A program made the position numbers and the translations under genes. A stretch of 64,000 bases of DNA from Oscillospiraceae bacterium (GTDB taxonomy: Bacteria > Bacillota > Clostridia > Oscillospirales > Oscillospiraceae). Below are positions 2,747-61,667 of the stretch, one piece after another (the stretch's first letter is position 1; every line of letters begins with the position of its first letter). Below the pieces are notes generated by a model that saw only the letters and a program-made list of their open reading frames with translations, made no database searches and was not told the origin of the DNA. The stretch covers positions 2,914-66,913 of the forward strand of contig JAFSMZ010000053.1 of assembly GCA_017447685.1 (NCBI GenBank), written 5' to 3'.

Positions 2747-4525
2747 GTCTCGCCCCACGTGGGCGAGTGGATTGAAATAATGTGATCCCCTGCAGCGATT
2801 TCCGCGTGGAATAGTCTCGCCCCAGGCGGGGCGAGTGGATTGAAATCCTTCTTCCCGCCCAAACGCGGCACCCCGCGCCCGTCTCGCCCCACGCGGGGCG
2901 AGTGGATTGAAATGGAAAGAATCATCTGTAGGAGGGATGAAATTGGCGTCTCGCCCCACTCGGGGCGAGTGGATTGAAACTCGCCCAAAAATTCCTTCGT
3001 ATGTTTCCACACGGTGTCTCGCCTCATGCGGGCGAGTGGATTGAAATTACGGCAATCCCCAGAATTGCGAGCTGCCCATCTTGTCTCGCCCCACGCGGGG
3101 CGAGTGGATTGAAATCTGCAGTGTCATAAGTATGCCCACGGCAAATGCAGTCTCGCCCCACGCGGGGCAAGTGGATTGAAATCTCGTAGGTGATGCGCTC
3201 ATCTCCGATCACAAGCTGTCTCGCCCCATGCGGGGCGAGTGGATTGAAATTACATGCCGGTGCAGCCTGCCGGTTACGGCTACGGTCTCGCCCCGAGTGG
3301 GGCGAGTGGATTGAAATCCTGTGTTTGCCAATATCGGTAACCAGCCTGTTTAGTCTCGCCCCAGGCGGGGCGAGTGGATTGAAATCTTGACCACTGCATC
3401 TACGAGCTGGACAAGCACAGTCTCGCCCCACGCGGGGCGAGTGGATTGAAATTTGGTGCGAGTTTTGGCCAACGCCACAGCCTCCTTGTCTCGCCCCACG
3501 CGGGGCGAGTGGATTGAAATAACGGAGAAATTGGTGAGCTGCCTGGTTGCCGCTGACTCGCCCTGCTTGGGCGCGTGGATTGAAATTCGCCGAAAAACTC
3601 TTTTGTTTGCTTCCACACGCCTTCTCGCTCCATGTGGGCGAAGGGATAGAAATAACATCCTGAAACTTGTGGTTGGATTTATCGTGGGTCTCGTCCTACA
3701 AGGGGTGAGTGGATTGAAATATCATGGACATTGACCGAGGTATCAACACCAGCGGTCTCGCCCCATGCGGGGGAGGGGATTGAAATGTACAGGTACGGAT
3801 TGGTACGCCTTATTTGCATGTCTCGCCCCACGCGGGGCGAGTGGATTGAAACTCGTTCCGGATGATCTTCCGGCGGGCAATCTCCGTCTCGCCCCACGCG
3901 GAGCGAGTGGATTGAAATAGTGCCTTTTTTCAAGCACTCCTTTCAATTTGGTGTCTCGCCCCACGGGGGGCGAGTGGATTGAAATAACGACCTTGAGCTC
4001 AACTGCTACATGGTGGCCGTGTCTCGCCCCACGCGGGCGAGTGGATTGAAATATCGAGAACGTGGGCGCACCTGTCCTGAAGGGTACGTCTCGCCCCAGA
4101 CGGGACGAGTGGATTGAAATACCAAGGGCATTGCTTACGCCGAGTTTTTTGACGTGTCTCGCCCCACGCGGGGCGAGTGGATTGAAATAAAAAGACAGGC
4201 CGGCACTTTCCCATTGAGGATCGTCTCGCCCCACGCGGGGCGAGTGGATTGAAATCAGATGCAGAAGTGGCTTGAAAAGTCTGCTCTTTGTCTCGCCCCA
4301 CGCGGGGCAAGTGGATTGATATTTCTTTTGGGCTTCGTATTTGGAAATCTCGCTCATGCCTCGCCCCACGTGGGCGAGTGGATTGAAATGGCCTTAGATT
4401 GATATAAAAACCGCAGTGCTTCGGTCTCGCCCTACGCGGGGCGAGTGGATTGAAATTCTCCGAAAAACTCCTTGGTATGTTCCCAGACCAAAGTCTCGCC
4501 CCACGCGGGGCGAGTGGATTGAAAG
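2747..4525 (+). CRISPR. CRISPR array, 27 repeats and 26 spacers, type I-C repeat family
   Basis: Consensus repeat GTCTCGCCCCACGCGGGGCGAGTGGATTGAAAT (33 bp; internal palindrome CGCCCC/GGGGCG; 3' ATTGAAAT handle). Repeat starts: 2747, 2814, 2881, 2948, 3016, 3083, 3150, 3218, 3285, 3353, 3420, 3488, 3555, 3621, 3688, 3755, 3820, 3886, 3953, 4021, 4088, 4156, 4223, 4290, 4358, 4424, 4493. Spacers are 33-36 bp. Confidence 0.97.
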
Positions 4526-4573
4526 GTGTCGTCAATCTCATAGCCCTTCGGCGTGTCGAAGTCACCCCCAACG

Positions 4574-51461: not shown

Positions 51462-51953
51462 ATGGATTTTACGCATTTTAACGAACAGGGCAGGGCAAAA
51501 ATGGTGAACGTGGGGGAGAAAAGCCCCAGCGTTCGCAGCGCCACGGCAGCTGCAAGAGTCCTGGTGAACCGGGAGACCTTTGCCCTGATCCGCAGCGGCG
51601 GCATGAAAAAGGGGGATGTGCTCACCGTGGCCCAGGTGGCCGGCGTCATGGGCGCCAAACGCACCCCGGACCTGATCCCCATGTGCCACCCGATCCTGAT
51701 CGACGGGGTGGATCTGCAGCTGAGCCTGGACGAGGAGCGCTGCAGCGTGGAGATCCGGGCCACCGTCTCCTGCGACGGGCGCACCGGCGTGGAGATGGAG
51801 GCCCTCACCGCCGTGAGCACCGCGGCCCTTACAGTATATGACATGTGCAAGGCCGTGCAAAAGGACATGGTCATCACGGACGTCCGGCTGCTGCGCAAAA
51901 GCGGCGGTGTGCACGGGGATTTTGAGAGAAAGGATGAGGCGCAGCATGGATAA
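51462..51953 (+). CDS. moaC: Cyclic pyranopterin monophosphate synthase MoaC
   Basis: MDFTHFNEQGRAKMVNVGEK.. DLIPMCHPI .. TGVEMEALTAVS... The alternative ATG 51447 would add 5 aa. Confidence 0.85.
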   Translation: MDFTHFNEQGRAKMVNVGEKSPSVRSATAAARVLVNRETFALIRSGGMKKGDVLTVAQVAGVMGAKRTPDLIPMCHPILIDGVDLQLSLDEERCSVEIRATVSCDGRTGVEMEALTAVSTAALTVYDMCKAVQKDMVITDVRLLRKSGGVHGDFERKDEAQHG

Positions 51954-52698
51954 ACAGGAGATCACCGCGCTGCTGGAGAGCGTGGCCGCCGGGACCACCC
52001 CGGTGGAGGAGGCGGTGCTGCAGTTGAAGACCGCGCCCATCCGGGAGATCGGCGCCTATGCCAAGGTGGACCTGCACCGGGGCCTGCGCCAGGGCGTGCC
52101 CGAGGTTATTTACGGCGCGGGCAAAACGCCGGAGCACATCCTGGGCATTGCCAGGGCCATGCGGGAGAGCGGCCAGGAGACCGTGCTGGTGACCCGCATG
52201 AGCCCGGAGGCGGCGGCCCTGGTGGAGAAAGAGCTGCCCCTGCGCTACGATCCCCAGTCCAAAACCGGGGTGATCGGAAGGCTACCCGCGCCCACGGGCA
52301 AGGGCACCGTGGTGGTGGCAACCGGCGGCACCAGCGATATCCCCGTGGCGGAGGAGGCGGCCGTCACCGCCGAGGCCCTGGGCAACCGGGTGGTGCGGCT
52401 TTACGACGTGGGCGTCTCCGGCATCCACCGACTGCTGAGCCATCTGGAGGAGATCATGAGCGCACGGGTCATCGTGGCGGTGGCCGGCATGGAGGGGGCC
52501 CTCCCCTCGGTGATCGGCGGCCTTGCCGACTGCCCGGTGATCGCGGTGCCCACCAGCGTGGGCTACGGCGCCTCCCTGGGCGGGATCGCGGCGCTTCTCA
52601 GCATGCTCAATTCCTGCGCCAGCGGCGTTTCGGTGGTGAACATCGACAACGGCTTCGGCGCGGGCTATATGGCCAGCATGATCAACCATCTGGATTGA
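51946..52698 (+). CDS. larB: LarB, pyridinium-3,5-biscarboxylic acid mononucleotide synthase (PurE-fold)
   Basis: 250 aa; VVVATGGTSDIPVAEEA .. AVAGMEGALPSV. The start overlaps the moaC stop by 8 nt. Confidence 0.8.
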   Translation: MDKQEITALLESVAAGTTPVEEAVLQLKTAPIREIGAYAKVDLHRGLRQGVPEVIYGAGKTPEHILGIARAMRESGQETVLVTRMSPEAAALVEKELPLRYDPQSKTGVIGRLPAPTGKGTVVVATGGTSDIPVAEEAAVTAEALGNRVVRLYDVGVSGIHRLLSHLEEIMSARVIVAVAGMEGALPSVIGGLADCPVIAVPTSVGYGASLGGIAALLSMLNSCASGVSVVNIDNGFGAGYMASMINHLD

Positions 52699-52733
52699 AC
52701 GAGTTTTGCGTTTTGAGACTTGACCTTTGCGCT

Positions 52734-53489
52734 ATGACGATTCAAGACTTTTTTTCCGAACACCCCAAGGCGGCGCTGGCCTTTTCGGGGGGCGTGGACT
52801 CGGCCTATCTGCTGTATGCGGGAATACAGGCCGGGGCCGACATCCGACCCTACTATGCTAAGAGCCAGTTCCAGCCCCAATTTGAATATGAGGACGCCAT
52901 GCGCCTCTGCCGGGAGCTGGGGGCGGAGCCCAGAGTGCTGCGGCTGGACGCCTTGTGCTCAAAGGACGTGGCGCGCAACGGACCGGACCGCTGCTACCAC
53001 TGCAAGATCAATATTATGTCAACCGTTTTGAAGGCCGCAGCTGAGGACGGCTATCCGGTATTGCTGGACGGGACCAACGCCTCCGACGACGCGGGGGACC
53101 GGCCCGGCATGCGGGCGCTGCGGGAACTGGAGATCCTCTCGCCCCTGCGGCTCTGCGGGCTCACCAAGCCCGAGATCCGGCGGCGCAGCCGGGAGGCGGG
53201 GCTTTTCACCTGGAATAAGCCCGCCTACGCCTGCCTGGCCACCCGGGTGAAGACCGGAGAGCTCATTACCAACGAACGGCTCGCGGCCATCGAGGAGAGC
53301 GAGGATTATCTCTTTTCCAAAGGCTATACGGATTTCCGGGTGCGCACCATGGGAAAGGCGGCGCTGCTGCAGTTTCCGGCGGAGCAGCTGGAAAAGGCCA
53401 AAAGCGAGGAGACGGAGATCGTCGGAAGGCTGAGGGCCTTCTTTGAGAGCATTTCCATAGACCCGAGGGGGAGAACAAAAGGCTTATGA
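52734..53489 (+). CDS. larE: LarE, ATP-dependent sacrificial sulfur transferase (PP-loop)
   Basis: PP-loop FSGGVDS. Candidate sacrificial Cys in YACLATR. The track start at 52695 is TTG; ATG 52734 is preferred. Confidence 0.8.
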   Translation: MTIQDFFSEHPKAALAFSGGVDSAYLLYAGIQAGADIRPYYAKSQFQPQFEYEDAMRLCRELGAEPRVLRLDALCSKDVARNGPDRCYHCKINIMSTVLKAAAEDGYPVLLDGTNASDDAGDRPGMRALRELEILSPLRLCGLTKPEIRRRSREAGLFTWNKPAYACLATRVKTGELITNERLAAIEESEDYLFSKGYTDFRVRTMGKAALLQFPAEQLEKAKSEETEIVGRLRAFFESISIDPRGRTKGL

Positions 53490-54664
53490 AAACACTGTAT
53501 TTGGAATGCAATATGGGCGCGGCGGGGGATATGCTGACGGCTGCCCTGCTGGAGCTGCACCCGGAGCCCGGGGCCTTTCTGGAAAAGCTGAACGCCGCGC
53601 TGCCCGAGGGGGTCGCCGTTTCGGCGGAGAAGGACGAAAAGCGGGGCATTCGCGGCACCCATGTCCATGTGAATATCCACGGGGAAGAGGAGGGGCAGGA
53701 GGTCGGACACCACCACCATCACCACCATACTTCGGTGAGCGAGATCCTGGAGCGGATCCGGGGACTGGAGATCCCGGAGCAGGTGAAGGAGGATGCCTTC
53801 GCCGTCTACCGCCGGATCGCGGCGGCGGAGAGTGAGGTCCACGGAGAGCCGGTGGAGAATATCCACCTGCACGAGGTGGGCTCCCTGGACGCCCTGGCGG
53901 ATGTGCTGGCGGTGTGCTGGCTGCTCTTTGAGCTGGAGCCGGAGAAGATCGTCTGCTCCCCCATCGCGGTGGGCAGCGGCACCGTAAAATGTGCCCACGG
54001 CATCCTGCCGGTGCCGGCGCCGGCCACGGCGCTGCTGCTGCGGGGTCTGCCCGTCTGGGCGGGAAGCGAAAAGGGAGAGCTCTGTACGCCCACGGGAGCG
54101 GCGCTGCTGGGTCATTTCGCGCAGCAATACGGCCCCATGCCCGCCATGGTCCCGGAAAAGTGCGGGATCGGCACGGGACACAAGGACTTTGCCACGGCCA
54201 ATGTGCTGCGGGCCTTCTGGGGCGAGAGCGAAGGAGAGCGGGAAGCGATCCTGGAGCTCAAATGCAACCTGGACGACAGCACCGGGGAAGAACTGGGCTT
54301 TGCCATGGAAATGCTCTTTGAAGAGGGCGCCCTGGACGTGTTCACCACTCCCATCGGCATGAAGAAGGACCGCCCTGCAGTTATGGTAACTGTTTTATGT
54401 AAACCAGAAAAGCGGGACGAGCTGATCCGCTGCCTGTTCCGGCACACCACGACCCTGGGCGTGCGGGAGAGCGCCTGCCTGAGATCTACCCTGCAGCGGG
54501 GCTTTTACACGGTGGAGACCGAGGCTGGCCCGGTGCGCTTCAAGACGGCGGAGGGCTTCGGCGTGAACCGGGAGAAGGCGGAGTTTGAGGACCTGGCCCG
54601 GATCGCCCGGGAGCAGGGCATCAGCCTGCGGGAAGCCGCCGCTTTGGCGGAGCTGGAGTCATGA
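53486..54664 (+). CDS. larC: LarC, nickel insertion protein (NPN cofactor cyclometallase)
   Basis: 392 aa. MKTLYLECNMGAAGDM.., His tract GHHHHHHHT, HLHEVGSLDALADV. ATGA overlap with larE. Confidence 0.85.
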   Translation: MKTLYLECNMGAAGDMLTAALLELHPEPGAFLEKLNAALPEGVAVSAEKDEKRGIRGTHVHVNIHGEEEGQEVGHHHHHHHTSVSEILERIRGLEIPEQVKEDAFAVYRRIAAAESEVHGEPVENIHLHEVGSLDALADVLAVCWLLFELEPEKIVCSPIAVGSGTVKCAHGILPVPAPATALLLRGLPVWAGSEKGELCTPTGAALLGHFAQQYGPMPAMVPEKCGIGTGHKDFATANVLRAFWGESEGEREAILELKCNLDDSTGEELGFAMEMLFEEGALDVFTTPIGMKKDRPAVMVTVLCKPEKRDELIRCLFRHTTTLGVRESACLRSTLQRGFYTVETEAGPVRFKTAEGFGVNREKAEFEDLARIAREQGISLREAAALAELES

Positions 54665-58366: not shown

Positions 58367-58395
58367 TTGACGAAAGGAAAAACCTTTGCTATAAT
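58367..58395 (+). promoter_or_regulatory. Sigma-A promoter of the kinase-PqqD-peptidase-ABC cassette
   Basis: TTGACG (58367-58372), 17 nt, TATAAT (58390-58395). Confidence 0.7.
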
Positions 58396-58479
58396 CTACA
58401 GGATAATATGGGGTCTTGCGGGATCACACAGCCGTGGGCTTGCACAACTCGCAGAGAAACAGAGACCCGGAGGAATGGA

Positions 58480-59232
58480 ATGGCGGAAAACATGACGGAA
58501 TTCACGGTAAAGCTGGCGGATATCCCGGTGAGGATCCGGGCGATCTGGCCGGAGCTGCGGCAGTTTCTGCAGGCTTATCTGACGGAAGAGGAAGCGGTGT
58601 TCACCATCGAGACCGGACAGGAGGACATCGACCGGGAACGGGTCATGAGCGCAAGGACCCGGGCCGCGGAGGGCCTGCCGGAGCTGCACACCAGCGACTT
58701 CTACCTGGAGACCCTTGCCGTCTATCGAAAGCTGGCGGATGCGCTGGTGGAGCGGGAAGTGCTGCTGTTTCACGGCTCCGTGGTGGCGGTGGACGGGGAA
58801 GCCTATCTTTTTACAGCCCCGAGCGGCACCGGCAAGAGCACCCACACCAGACTTTGGCGGGAGACCTTCGGAGAGCGCGCCGTGATGATCAATGACGACA
58901 AGCCCCTGCTGCGTGTGAGCCGGGAAGGCGTTCGTGCTTACGGTACCCCCTGGAACGGCAAACATCATCTGGGCGGCAACTGCTCGGCGCCGCTGAAGGC
59001 GCTTTGCATCCTGGAACGGGCCAGGGAAAACCATGTGGAGCGTGTGTCTCCCGAGGATGCCTTCCCCCGGATGCTGCAGCAGTGCTATCTGCCGGAGAAC
59101 GGAGAGAAAGTGGAGAAGACGCTGGCACTGCTGGAACGCATGTGCCAAACTGTGAAGCTTTACAGACTGGGCTGCAATATGAAACGGGAAGCGGCGCTGG
59201 TCTCATATCAGGGAATGCAGGAGGAAGCATAA
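58480..59232 (+). CDS. HPr-kinase-like P-loop protein (HprK-related / ScmC-like)
   Basis: ATG 58480 lies 6 nt after GGAGG; 250 aa. FTAPSGTGKSTHTRLW...VMINDDKPLL matches the HprK C-domain pattern GxSGxGKS...DD. Confidence 0.55.
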   Translation: MAENMTEFTVKLADIPVRIRAIWPELRQFLQAYLTEEEAVFTIETGQEDIDRERVMSARTRAAEGLPELHTSDFYLETLAVYRKLADALVEREVLLFHGSVVAVDGEAYLFTAPSGTGKSTHTRLWRETFGERAVMINDDKPLLRVSREGVRAYGTPWNGKHHLGGNCSAPLKALCILERARENHVERVSPEDAFPRMLQQCYLPENGEKVEKTLALLERMCQTVKLYRLGCNMKREAALVSYQGMQEEA

Positions 59233-59233
59233 G

Positions 59234-59497
59234 ATGAAACTGAAACAAGGCTTTATCACCCATAATGTGGGAAAGACCCAGATGATGGTAGCCACAGGCC
59301 CCGCCAGCTCGGTCTTTCGCGGTCTGGTCCGTTCCAACGAGACGGCGGCCTTTATTGTTGACTGCCTGAAGAAGGAGACCACGGAAGAGGAAATCGTGAA
59401 AGCCATGCTGCAGGAATACGACGCTCCGGAAGAAGTGATCGCACGGGACGTGCACAGTGTGGTGGAAAAGCTTCAGGAAATCGGAGCACTGGAATGA
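59234..59497 (+). CDS. PqqD-family protein (RiPP recognition element / peptide chaperone)
   Basis: 87 aa; ..NETAAFIVDCLKKETTEEEIVKAMLQEYDAPEEVIARDVHSVVEKLQEIGAL is the PqqD-like winged-helix pattern. Confidence 0.7.
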   Translation: MKLKQGFITHNVGKTQMMVATGPASSVFRGLVRSNETAAFIVDCLKKETTEEEIVKAMLQEYDAPEEVIARDVHSVVEKLQEIGALE

Positions 59498-59937
59498 GCT
59501 CCTTCGAGGAAGAACTGGAGCAGAACGGCACCCTGGTCTTCCCCAATAAGGGGAAAAGCATGCTGCCACTGCTGCGGGAAAACCGGGACCTGATGGTGAT
59601 TCGGAAAAAAGGACCGGAACGCTGCAAAAAATACGACGCCGTGCTCTTTCGGCGGGGCGAGCAGTATGTGCTGCACCGGATCCTGAAGGTCCGGGAGAAG
59701 GACTACTGGATCGTGGGTGATAATTGCTGTACCGGCGACGATGTTCGGGACGAGCAGATCCTGGGCGTTCTGACTCAGGTGGTGCGGGACGGGAAGACCA
59801 TTTCCACAACGGACCCGGTTTACCGGATCTATGTACACCTGTGGTGTGATCTCTTCCCGCTGCGCTCGGTCCTGCTCCGCACCAGGGGACGGGCATACAG
59901 AGCGGGATCCAGGATCAAGAGGATGCTGAAACGATGA
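59494..59937 (+). CDS. S24/S26-family Ser-Lys dyad peptidase-like protein
   Basis: 147 aa. GKSMLPLL (Ser) and VLHRILKV (Lys) blocks. ATGA overlaps on both sides. Confidence 0.6.
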   Translation: MSSFEEELEQNGTLVFPNKGKSMLPLLRENRDLMVIRKKGPERCKKYDAVLFRRGEQYVLHRILKVREKDYWIVGDNCCTGDDVRDEQILGVLTQVVRDGKTISTTDPVYRIYVHLWCDLFPLRSVLLRTRGRAYRAGSRIKRMLKR

Positions 59938-61622
59938 AAGAGCGAAAATCCACCCTGCGCTGGCTGATCCGGATCGCGGGCCGGGTCAGACTCTGTGTGG
60001 CAGGGCTGACGCTGGCGCAGGTCTTTCTCGGCGGGATCAGCGTGCTCTACGCCTTCCTGATGCGCAGCATCGTCGATGAGGCTGTGGCGGGCAGAAGGGA
60101 AGGCGTGGTGCGCGGCGCGCTGCTGCTGATCGTGCTGGCGCTGGCTCAGCAGCTGCTCTGGGCCGGGACCCGCTTCCTGAAGGAATTCGGGGCGGCGGAG
60201 TTGGAAAACCGGCTGAAAAAGCGGCTATTCTCCGCACTTTTGCGAAAGGACTATGCCGCGGTGACGGCTCTGCACTCCGGTGAGTGGATGAACCGGCTGA
60301 CCAGCGACAGCGCTGTGGTGGCCAAGTCCGCAGTCAACATCCTGCCGAACCTGACGGGCATGACGGTGAGGCTGCTGGGAGCACTGACTGCGCTCATCTA
60401 TCTGGAGCCCCTTTTCGCCGCCGTGCTGATTCCCGGGGGACTGCTGGTGATGCTGTTGACCTATGGCATCCGGCGGCTGCTGAAAACGCTGCACAAACGT
60501 ATCCAGGAATCCGACGGGCGCTTGCGCAGTTTCCTGCAGGAGCGGCTGGGCAGCCAGCTGGTGCTGCGCAGTTTCGGCGCCCAGGCGCAGAGCGAAGATC
60601 TGGCCGCAGAGCGGATGAAGGAGCATAAAAACGCCAGGATCCGCAGAAACCACGTCTCCAACCTCAGCAGTCTGGCCTATGGAATCCTGATTCAGGGGGC
60701 TGTGGTGGGCAGTATAGTGTTCTGCGCCTTCGGCCTTCTGCAGGGAACGCTCAGCTACGGCACGCTCATGGCGGTGGTACAGCTGGTGGGACAGATCCGG
60801 GGCCCCTTTGCCAACCTTTCCGGCCTGGTGCCGGAATACTATGGCATGATCGCCAGCGCCGAGCGCCTTATGGAGGCGGAAAGCTTTCCCGATGACGGAG
60901 GACAGACCCGGACCCGGGAGCAGATCCAGCGCCTTTATGAGGAGGAGCTGGAGTCGCTGGGCCTGGAGAAGGCCAGCTTCACCTACCGTCCGCCGATGCG
61001 GGAAGAGGGGGAGCGCCCGATGTCCGTGGTGCTGGAGGACCTGAGCCTGCAGATCCGCAAAGGAGAATATGTGGCCTTCACCGGCCATTCCGGCAGCGGC
61101 AAGAGCACGGTGTTGAAGCTTTTGATGAGCATTTATCCGCTGGACAGCGGAGAGCGCTATCTGGAGACCGGAGCGGGAAGAACAGAGCTGGACGCCTCCT
61201 GGCGGGGACTCTTCGCCTATGTGCCCCAGGGAAACGAGCTACTCAGCGGCAGTATCCGGGAGATTCTCGCTTTTGGGGACCGGGAGAAGATGCACCGGGA
61301 CGAGGAGCTCTGGACGGCGCTGCGTATCGCCTGCGCGGAGGATTTTGTCTCTGCTCTGGACAGGGGCTTGGACAGCGAATTGGGAGAGAGCGGCGCGGGC
61401 CTTTCCGAAGGGCAGATGCAGCGCATCGCCATCGCCCGGGCGGTGTTCTCGGCCCGGCCGGTGCTGCTGCTGGACGAGGCGACCAGCTCGCTGGACGCCG
61501 ATACGGAAAAGCAGGTGCTGGAAAACCTGCGCAGCATGACGGATCGCACCGTGCTGATCGTGACCCACCGGCCTGCGGCCCTGGCCATCTGTGACAAGGA
61601 GATCCAGCTGGCGGGAGAATAA
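59934..61622 (+). CDS. ABC exporter, fused TMD-NBD, no C39 peptidase domain
   Basis: 562 aa with a 6-TM N-terminal half. Walker A GHSGSGKST, signature LSEGQMQRIAIARA, Walker B LLLDEATSSLD. Confidence 0.85.
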   Translation: MKERKSTLRWLIRIAGRVRLCVAGLTLAQVFLGGISVLYAFLMRSIVDEAVAGRREGVVRGALLLIVLALAQQLLWAGTRFLKEFGAAELENRLKKRLFSALLRKDYAAVTALHSGEWMNRLTSDSAVVAKSAVNILPNLTGMTVRLLGALTALIYLEPLFAAVLIPGGLLVMLLTYGIRRLLKTLHKRIQESDGRLRSFLQERLGSQLVLRSFGAQAQSEDLAAERMKEHKNARIRRNHVSNLSSLAYGILIQGAVVGSIVFCAFGLLQGTLSYGTLMAVVQLVGQIRGPFANLSGLVPEYYGMIASAERLMEAESFPDDGGQTRTREQIQRLYEEELESLGLEKASFTYRPPMREEGERPMSVVLEDLSLQIRKGEYVAFTGHSGSGKSTVLKLLMSIYPLDSGERYLETGAGRTELDASWRGLFAYVPQGNELLSGSIREILAFGDREKMHRDEELWTALRIACAEDFVSALDRGLDSELGESGAGLSEGQMQRIAIARAVFSARPVLLLDEATSSLDADTEKQVLENLRSMTDRTVLIVTHRPAALAICDKEIQLAGE

Positions 61623-61633
61623 AAACCGAACAC

Positions 61634-61667
61634 AAAAAGGGATCCCACCGCGGTGGGATCCCTTTTT
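61634..61667. terminator. Bidirectional rho-independent terminator
   Basis: Perfect palindrome AAAAAGGGATCCCACCG/CGGTGGGATCCCTTTTT. Confidence 0.85.

Follow-up and report, generated by a model that had tools for sequence, protein, structure and literature searches.

What does a bacterial gene cassette do when it holds the parts to recognize, modify, cut and export a peptide, and no peptide gene lies beside it? The question is raised by four genes, hereafter K, D, P and T, in a 64,000-nucleotide stretch of an Oscillospiraceae bacterium genome (assembly GCA_017447685.1, contig JAFSMZ010000053.1; this whole stretch is the window). They encode a P-loop kinase of predicted HprK/PEPCK fold, a discrete PqqD-type recognition element (RRE) for peptides made on ribosomes and modified after translation (RiPPs), a signal-peptidase-like leader peptidase and an ABC exporter. 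A first-pass annotation, read from the DNA letters, had proposed a pathway to a linear, possibly phosphorylated, exported peptide whose precursor is encoded elsewhere or, alternatively, a remnant or a non-peptide system. Our analysis supports the proposed pathway as essentially right apart from the catalytic type assigned to the peptidase: the four genes are very probably a maturation and export cassette resembling those of linear polyphosphorylated peptides (LPPs). The fuller reading, a clostridial LPP-like operon that acts on an unlinked precursor, is likely, and the precursor is probably encoded elsewhere in the genome.

The pathway type is already known. It was published in May 2026 by Popov et al. 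(Nat Commun 2026; PMC13381572), who define LPPs from approximately 126 clusters, mainly in Bacilli. An LPP cluster is formed by the precursor gene lppA, the HprK-like kinase gene lppK, the RRE gene lppB, lppS for an archaeal-type signal peptidase (SpI) homologous to SipW, lppD for an MsbA-like exporter and lppN for an NTP_transf_5 protein. In heterologous expression, LppK places up to four phosphates on core Ser3, detected as a +80 Da series; LppS cuts the leader after Thr-1, poorly in the absence of phosphorylation, and its cleavage requires LppB and is abolished by S29A, H68A or D93A (PMC13381572). Deletion of lppN leaves the products unchanged (PMC13381572), so that four genes are biochemically sufficient in the published system. 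The window has the same parts in the same order, K-D-P-T corresponding to lppK-B-S-D of Paenibacillus alginolyticus DSM5050 and other Bacilli, and the gene order of the clostridial archetype, derived independently from related loci (below), is again the LPP order. The best models of the window proteins are the LPP-defining ones (TIGR02228, PqqD, TIGR04249/04352 and TIGR02203/02204), with NTP_transf_5 present in relatives. What the first-pass annotation had proposed, a homologous system thus does experimentally; its statement that the unit contains no core enzyme is misleading, because the class-defining enzyme of LPPs is the kinase.

The first gene, K (58480..59232, plus strand, as are all four genes), encodes a 250-amino-acid LppK-like protein. 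It has no Pfam match in our local library and is assigned to PF27840 (ScmC) on identical contigs; its best NCBIfam match is TIGR04249 (ScmC), at E = 2.2e-6, the 27.3 bits lying below the cut-off of 125. Modelled with AlphaFold2 from an alignment of 47 sequences (pLDDT 94.5), K has ATP-dependent PEPCK and HPr kinase/phosphorylase as its top Foldseek matches in the PDB (E of 1e-7 to 1e-5). The model indicates a PEPCK/HprK P-loop fold, in agreement with the first-pass annotation, and the likeness to the HprK fold appears real. Invariant across the family are H98-G-S100, the P-loop S115-G-T-G-K119-S120 and N138-D139-D140-K-P, and these motifs align with the ‘HG...GxSGxGKS’ segment of HprK in a PDB profile match, in which HprK itself is reached only at E = 0.85 and over the P-loop region. 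K was also considered as an HPr kinase/phosphorylase proper and rejected as such, there being no match to Pfam Hpr_kinase_C at E up to 0.1. It remains a putative kinase of the HprK-like TIGR04249/TIGR04352 type found in LPP clusters.

The adaptor D (59234..59497, 87 amino acids; LppB-like) matches Pfam PqqD at E = 8e-16, with 58.6 bits against a cut-off of 23.4, and the first-pass assignment to the PqqD-like RREs holds under profile search. As in LPP clusters, this discrete RRE stands beside the peptidase, with a 4-nt overlap between the two genes. Its likeness to LppB is seen in profile comparison only; a direct match was sought by BLASTP and rejected, and the LppB structure 9X8Z is not among the PDB sequence-search matches. 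In a low-identity profile alignment, the invariant N35 and conserved D72 of D align with N33 and D70 of LppB, of which the former fixes the kink at the leader Pro and the latter hydrogen-bonds the leader Tyr (PMC13381572). K and D both look functional.

The peptidase P (59494..59937, 147 amino acids; LppS-like) is the component for which the first-pass annotation needs correction. By direct sequence match, it resembles a signal peptidase weakly (Pfam S24, E = 0.03; best NCBIfam match TIGR02228, E = 6e-5, below cut-off), and the wider evidence is consistent with that identity. The P family profile matches bacterial SPase I and human SEC11A/C in the PDB, and the top Foldseek matches of its AlphaFold2 model (pLDDT 91) are all S24/S26 enzymes: SpsB, UmuD′, LexA, SipA and SEC11A. 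BLASTP aligns P with LppS at 26% identity over 134 residues (E = 2e-10), hhalign gives 97.9% probability, and S22, H61 and D82 of P align with the catalytic S29, H68 and D93 of LppS. Invariant residues are G20-x-S22-M-x-P25, H61-R62 and G75-D76, together with an acidic residue at position 82, Asp in the window and Glu in most homologues. His61 occupies the place of the catalytic His of SEC11 (‘VHR’) and of the catalytic Lys of bacterial enzymes (‘VKR’). The fold matches agree with the S24/S26 assignment, and the homology to LppS supports the role as leader protease; the predicted Ser-Lys dyad (S26A/S24, as in bacterial SPase I and LexA) is rejected, given the invariant His61-Arg62 at the general-base position; the alignments indicate an archaeal/ER-type (S26B; SipW/Sec11/LppS type) enzyme with a Ser22/His61/Asp82 triad, the TIGR02228-like class of the LPP peptidases.

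P resembles SipW, Sec11 and archaeal type I signal peptidases (MEROPS S26B) in fold, in the GxSMxP, xHR and GDN...D motifs and in the 39-residue Ser-His spacing. Unlike them, it has no N-terminal membrane anchor, is only 147 amino acids long and ends in a long helix (residues 108–146) with a basic tail; it also shares its operon with an RRE and would need its substrate to be presented by that RRE. Because P has no N-terminal transmembrane segment, its catalytic domain should be cytoplasmic.

The last gene, T (59934..61622), encodes a 562-amino-acid MsbA-like half-transporter (LppD-like) with an ABC_membrane domain at residues 26–292 and an ABC_tran domain at residues 367–518. As the first-pass annotation had noted, there is no C39 peptidase domain. 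The best NCBIfam matches are TIGR02203 (6e-68) and TIGR02204 (1e-65), and T is an MsbA-like exporter of the kind present in LPP clusters.

Could these four genes instead be a fragment or accessory of a lasso-peptide cluster of paeninodin type, or of a radical-SAM cluster of SynChlorMet (SCM) type, with the core enzymes elsewhere? The likeness is considerable. Phosphorylated lasso clusters of the paeninodin/pseudomycoidin type in Firmicutes share with the cassette an HprK-like kinase, a discrete PqqD protein (B1) and an ABC exporter, and with its relatives a nucleotidyltransferase. Their leader likewise starts (Y/W)-x-x-P-x-(L/V/M), and precursors found in relatives of the cassette (below) start Y-x-x-P-x-(L/M)-E-x-(V/L), as Firmicute lasso precursors do. 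The best NCBIfam model for D is the lasso PqqD, below its cut-off, and that for K is ScmC, so that K shares with SCM cassettes both its best NCBIfam/Pfam assignment and a PqqD partner. Against this, the 64-kb window contains no Asn-synthase-like lasso cyclase, Transglut_core3 (B2) protease, radical-SAM enzyme or YcaO, as the first-pass annotation had stated. Unlike the paeninodin-type clusters, the window thus lacks a macrolactam synthetase (C) and B2; it has its own leader peptidase of a different, serine SpI-like class, and a linear product is expected. Unlike an SCM cassette, which combines ScmC with two radical SAM/SPASM maturases, it has no radical-SAM gene, and K scores 27 bits against the ScmC trusted cut-off of 125. 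We know of no SCM cassette with an SpI-like peptidase.

The gene neighbourhoods of related cassettes bear on the same question. A scan of one genome per species yields 321 relatives of K, and we analysed the best 80 together with a metagenome contig (L001) that carries a near-identical (98–100%) copy of the window cassette. These 81 loci are nearly all from Clostridia (Oscillospiraceae, Lachnospiraceae, Ruminococcus and Acutalibacteraceae), with Kandleria as a member outside the class. All-vs-all clustering of neighbouring open reading frames (ORFs) finds K in 81 of the 81 loci, D in 63, P in 60 and T in 54. A fifth gene after T, N, is present in 37 and encodes a nucleotidyltransferase of approximately 387 amino acids (NTP_transf_5, PF14907, 4.6e-39). 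The neighbourhood analysis that the first-pass annotation had recommended also reveals a co-occurring small ORF, a precursor family (A) beside the cassette in 32/81 loci. The clostridial archetype is A-K-D-P-T-N, and no other family occurs in more than 7 loci. Among strains in culture, Ruminococcus flavefaciens ND2009 (L057, with two precursors) and Kandleria vitulina DSM 20405 (L076) have the complete cluster. Among 118 immediately flanking genes, the commonest Pfam family is Radical_SAM (5), followed by TraX (4) and short-chain dehydrogenases (3); neither Asn_synthase nor Transglut_core3 is among the 25 commonest families listed. With no recurrent sixth gene and with this flank census, the cassette is an autonomous unit and not a piece of a lasso or radical-SAM cluster. 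The first-pass annotation had named constant embedding in such clusters as the mark of a decayed fragment, and the relatives are not so embedded. A radical-SAM gene does lie inside four of the loci (L063, L067, L069 and L079), which lends the fragment explanation some support; taken with the rest, we consider that explanation very unlikely.

In those four loci, the inserted gene (approximately 455 amino acids; L063 5881–7245, L067 2591–3955, L069 6115–7542 and L079 3413–4777) lies between K and the precursor or D genes. The encoded protein has a CxxxCxxC motif, matches Pfam Radical_SAM and Fer4_12 and has a Cys-rich C-terminus, and several precursor tails near these genes contain Cys. These loci may represent a hybrid subfamily with an extra cross-link. 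Separately, a TraX-family membrane protein gene lies inside or beside four related cassettes (L034 3384–4121 and three others). TraX is the N-acetyltransferase of F-pilin and acts after signal-peptidase cleavage; the TraX-family protein could provide an N-terminal acylation step after cleavage by P.

Measured against the archetype, the window form is incomplete. The four genes that the first-pass annotation took for the unit are indeed all there; as a full pathway, however, the archetype also has a precursor and an NTP_transf_5 gene, which are missing in the window, where T is followed by a terminator and then glnA. The six closest relatives, L007–L012, likewise have neither. This raises the possibility of a functionless remnant, an LPP-like cluster that has lost its precursor and nucleotidyltransferase genes and whose four remaining genes are decaying or idle, and frequent gain and loss have been reported for LPP-type clusters (PMC13381572). 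The distribution of gene sets speaks against it. In the 47 loci with complete flanks, the window form (K, D, P and T only) occurs 12 times, in several lineages, as compared with 11 loci with the complete set, 7 with K, D, P, T and N lacking A, 3 with A, K, D, P and T lacking N, and 14 with other, mostly partial sets.

Selection speaks against decay as well. All four frames are intact and the catalytic and P-loop residues are invariant, so that the residue loss which the first-pass annotation named as refuting is not seen. Comparison of the window with six relatives from the precursor-less clade, at dS of up to approximately 1, gives dN/dS values between 0.04 and 0.34: 0.15–0.30 for K, 0.04–0.20 for D, 0.22–0.34 for P and 0.21–0.32 for T. 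All four genes are under purifying selection, which argues against a decaying remnant and disfavours the first-pass alternative of a remnant or non-peptide system. D, the expected contact of the peptide, is the most constrained of the four, consistent with a conserved partner encoded elsewhere.

The regulatory elements are also kept, and those described by the first-pass annotation are present at exactly the coordinates given there. A sigma-70-type promoter, TTGACG-17 nt-TATAAT with a TG-extended −10 element, lies at 58367..58395 (plus strand; 11/12 match in a promoter scan) and is conserved in the three closest relatives, L007–L009, while the surrounding intergenic DNA diverges. It is followed by a 5′ untranslated leader of approximately 80 nt, read from the sequence (58396..58479, plus strand), with a GGAGG ribosome-binding site at 58469–58473, 6 nt from the ATG at 58480. 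An in-frame upstream ATG at 58408 was examined as an alternative start of K and rejected; the start is kept at 58480 because the upstream ATG is not conserved in L008 or L009, and gene callers give the same 250-aa product on identical metagenome contigs. A structured RNA in the leader was likewise rejected, with no match to Rfam families at E up to 1, and HMM (hidden Markov model) and pattern searches find no precursor-type small ORF there. The K stop codon (59230–59232) is separated by 1 nt from the D ATG at 59234, and ATGA overlaps couple D to P (59494–59497) and P to T (59934–59937), all four genes being co-directional. A bidirectional intrinsic terminator common to T and the convergent glnA closes the unit at 61634..61667. 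Its perfect 15-bp stem lies between an A-run and a U-run and folds at −29.1 kcal/mol (z = −6.1; 0/200 shuffles fold as well); a simple terminator scanner did not pick up this hairpin. With promoter and translational coupling retained as well, the remnant explanation is improbable, and we favour a functional LPP-like cassette.

If the cassette is functional, what does it act on? The precursor family of the related loci, traced from loci with a gap between K and D and then modelled as an HMM, gives an indication. The usual place of the precursor gene is 200–700 nt upstream of K and on its strand; some loci have it between K and D, and two or three copies are common. Searching a protein database with the profile returns at least 2,178 clusters; the few that are named are called ‘hypothetical’, and there is no Pfam domain. 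The top 119 precursors share a near-invariant 20-residue block, Y-[ETI]-[TA]-P-E-M-E-I-[VI]-E-F-[ED]-[TAVN]-E-D-[VI]-I-T-T-S, followed by a tail of 6–47 residues (median 13). Gly makes up 25% of this tail and Asp 13%, Pro, Asn and Glu are abundant too, and Lys and Arg together come to 1.6%. Invariance across a more divergent set is limited to the Asp and the Ser of EDVITTS. A close clostridial precursor is exemplified by MKERYETPEMEIVEFETEDIITTSGNDLPEVGI.

Peptide-centred look-ups place two abundant peptides a few kilobases upstream of K-D-P-T-N. For a third, on a contig of 290 kb, there is no cassette within 7 kb; an orphan of this kind shows that precursors do occur unlinked. In the window, two successive HMMs, made from 20 and later 40 clostridial precursors, detect no precursor at E up to 100 in six-frame stop-to-stop fragments that take in every frame of at least 18 aa, long ORFs included; nor do six-frame regular expressions for lasso-like leaders and the EDVITTS motif find any. 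The first-pass annotation had reported no precursor small ORF within the unit, and these searches agree. There is thus no adjacent precursor with the YxxPxVLxHQxIxFETxxS leader of the LPPs, and in precursor-less loci generally, a second peptide family upstream of K was looked for and none is recognizable.

Several features of the precursor loci stand out in their own right. In L088–L092 (peptides P0270 and P0356), the precursor gene starts approximately 16 nt after the gene for a 1,076–1,215-aa protein with a faint Glug-domain match, and K-D-P-T-N lies 1.5–5 kb beyond the peptide gene, separated from it by apparent mobile or defence genes (AAA_14/DUF4143, Fic/Bro-N and AbiEii). A perfect (ATAC)n microsatellite is located between K and the downstream precursor in five loci (L067, L023, L025, L027 and L081), just upstream of the second precursor gene; the repeat of L067 (4019–4043) has six copies. 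This repeat could be a slipped-strand on/off switch for precursor expression. The metagenomic peptide P0241 (65 aa) contains two complete leader repeats in tandem (MEKYEALEMEVIRFEAEDVICTS...MEKYEALEMEVIRFEAEDVICES...), and is either a fused double precursor or a read-through of two adjacent genes.

Homology between the clostridial precursors and LppA was considered and rejected, as it is not detectable by HMM. Shared features are a Y-x-x-P-x-(V/M) at the N-terminus, a triplet F-(E/D)-(small residue), then within a few residues a conserved Ser, and a tail that varies and is rich in Gly. Phosphate is likely to be accepted by the invariant Ser of EDVITTS, as judged from the strict need for Ser at LppA Ser3. 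Candidate cleavage sites are after F-E-T, which would leave a core starting EDVITTS, or after T-T-S, which would leave the variable tail only; either site would fit the LPP precedent as well as the preferences of signal peptidases.

On this analogy, the steps that are experimental in the Paenibacillus lpp system can be transferred to the window locus, where we infer them as follows. D would bind a precursor by its Y-x-x-P leader, the precursor gene lying elsewhere in the genome; K would use ATP to place one or several phosphates on a single Ser near the leader–core junction; P, through Ser22/His61/Asp82, would remove the leader from the D-presented, phosphorylated precursor; and T would export a short, linear, acidic, Gly/Asp-rich phosphopeptide. 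Lacking the nucleotidyltransferase, the cassette would yield a product that goes no further than phosphorylation, with no additional decoration of the phosphate expected.

A different substrate is conceivable: a bigger protein, secreted or at the surface, that bears the leader motif, or else peptides from other loci or organisms, with a role in signalling, at the surface or in biofilm as opposed to the production of a conventional natural product. The published LPP precursors are 35–200 aa long, with their clusters located in capsule loci (PMC13381572), some of the clostridial peptide genes directly follow a gene for a Glug-domain protein of 1,100–1,200 aa, and the cores are short and variable, like signalling peptides. 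The HMM search described above, however, covered the long ORFs of the window and found no such protein, and the relatives have the motif N-terminal in every case, within small ORFs of approximately 30–50 aa that rarely reach approximately 120 aa. We regard another substrate as rather unlikely and retain the dedicated small precursor encoded elsewhere.

How close is the cassette to the LPP family as defined? The signal peptidase–RRE pairs in the sequence similarity network (SSN) of the LPP study allow a comparison, in which E-values come from a tiny database and are only approximately comparable with the paper's threshold (~1e-23). SSN cluster 9, from uncultured Ruminococcus, is nearest: P is 30% identical (3e-19) and D is 38% identical (5e-18) to the RRE paired with its SpI. 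Cluster 4 (Dehalobacter and Anaerocolumna) follows, with 28–30% for P (5e-16 to 8e-14) and 26–30% for D (2e-14 to 5e-10). Against three members of cluster 1, the LPPs proper (Paenibacillus and Rossellomorea), P reaches 26–31% (2e-9 to 6e-8); D reaches 30% over 53 aa (5e-6) in Rossellomorea and has no match to P. alginolyticus LppB. P has no edge at E below ~1e-23 to the LppS relatives and so falls outside cluster 1. By these alignments, P and D appear clearly closer to the clostridial pairs of the minor clusters than to LPP cluster 1. Clusters 9 and 4 are minor SpI–RRE pairs listed without analysis in the LPP study, with the precursor given as ‘ND’ (PMC13381572).

Other differences point the same way. 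Unlike the LPP clusters, which are often beside paeninodin-type lasso clusters and sit in capsule loci (PMC13381572), the window cassette is in neither setting; its host belongs to the Clostridia, and its locus has no precursor and no NTP_transf_5 gene. The clostridial leader is Y-x-x-PEMEIVEF-x-x-EDVITTS as opposed to YxxPxVLxHQxIxFETxxS in LPPs, and the clostridial core is short and acidic, as opposed to a 45-aa Gly/Asn/Lys-rich peptide. We class the locus as an LPP-like cassette of a distinct clostridial subfamily, incomplete in that A and N are missing, and not a member of the LPP family as defined.

Several points weigh against the reading of the window as an LPP-like operon with an unlinked precursor. 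The window proteins are remote from the characterized family, P being 26% identical to LppS and D having no BLASTP match to LppB, and none of K, P and D reaches its NCBIfam trusted cut-off. In hhalign, the D family profile is equally near the lasso RRE PbaB1 (91% probability) and LppB (92%), so that D may belong with either the LPP or the lasso RREs. Neither LppA nor lasso precursors are picked up by the HMM of the clostridial precursors, and the phosphorylation and cleavage sites are thus extrapolated. No precursor lies near the cassette, including approximately 10 kb farther downstream on contigs with identical or near-identical (98–100%) copies, which makes the substrate in the host organism hypothetical, and the linear polyphosphorylated product of the clostridial cassettes is a predicted one.

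Identical and near-identical copies of the cassette occur on numerous metagenome contigs from gut and rumen, where the gene calls agree, and NCBI lists protein P in an Oscillospiraceae metagenome-assembled genome (IJQ42_09655). The rest of the window holds no RiPP-pathway gene. Its contents are type I-C cas genes with a CRISPR array, genes for a GH94 phosphorylase, a LacI regulator and a sugar ABC importer, genes of purine and pyrimidine biosynthesis, infC, rplT, larB/E/C, galT/galK and glnA. The type I-C genes include Cas8c/Csd1 at 97–1851 and Cas7 at 1814–2743, followed by an array of approximately 27 repeats (GTCTCGCCCCACGCGGGGCGAGTGGATTGAAAT, 67-nt period) from ~2761 to 4531. Upstream of galT/galK is a larB-larE-larC operon for nickel-pincer cofactor synthesis (51838–54664), to which identical contigs assign Pfam AIRC and Ni_insertion; a lactate racemase gene was not noticed in its vicinity. 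In the next-closest clade (L010 9046–10011, and also L011 and L012), the gene for a 321-aa membrane-anchored protein, with a transmembrane segment at the N-terminus and then a coiled-coil-like region, stands between galK and K, its end coinciding with the start codon of K; at the same spot, the window has the promoter-bearing intergenic region alone.

As a variant of a known pathway, the clostridial branch is new: it has its own large unannotated precursor family and four-gene cassettes that selection maintains in the absence of a precursor. Relatives of K form at least 7,764 clusters at 90% identity, the K-type kinase is called ‘hypothetical’ wherever a source names it, and we found no literature description of the kinase or of the clostridial precursor peptides. 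Tentatively, at a little short of even chances, the clostridial cassettes are a separate and much larger sister family of the LPPs, with short, acidic, Gly/Asp-rich, (poly)phosphorylated products, in which the four-gene forms are maintained as trans-acting maturation and export modules for precursors scattered over the genome. If so, the family would count thousands of members among the Oscillospiraceae, Lachnospiraceae and Ruminococcus of gut and rumen, with an unannotated precursor family. The locus shows LPP enzymatic logic in strict anaerobes of the gut and rumen Clostridia, where its scale is much larger, the leader differs and the cores are much shorter. The window cassette is a recognizable member of an emerging family that lacks the one gene that would predict a product. 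The precursor HMM and the five-gene signature would allow microbiome data to be mined, and the precursor-less form maintained by selection raises the question of RiPP enzymes that act on unlinked substrates.

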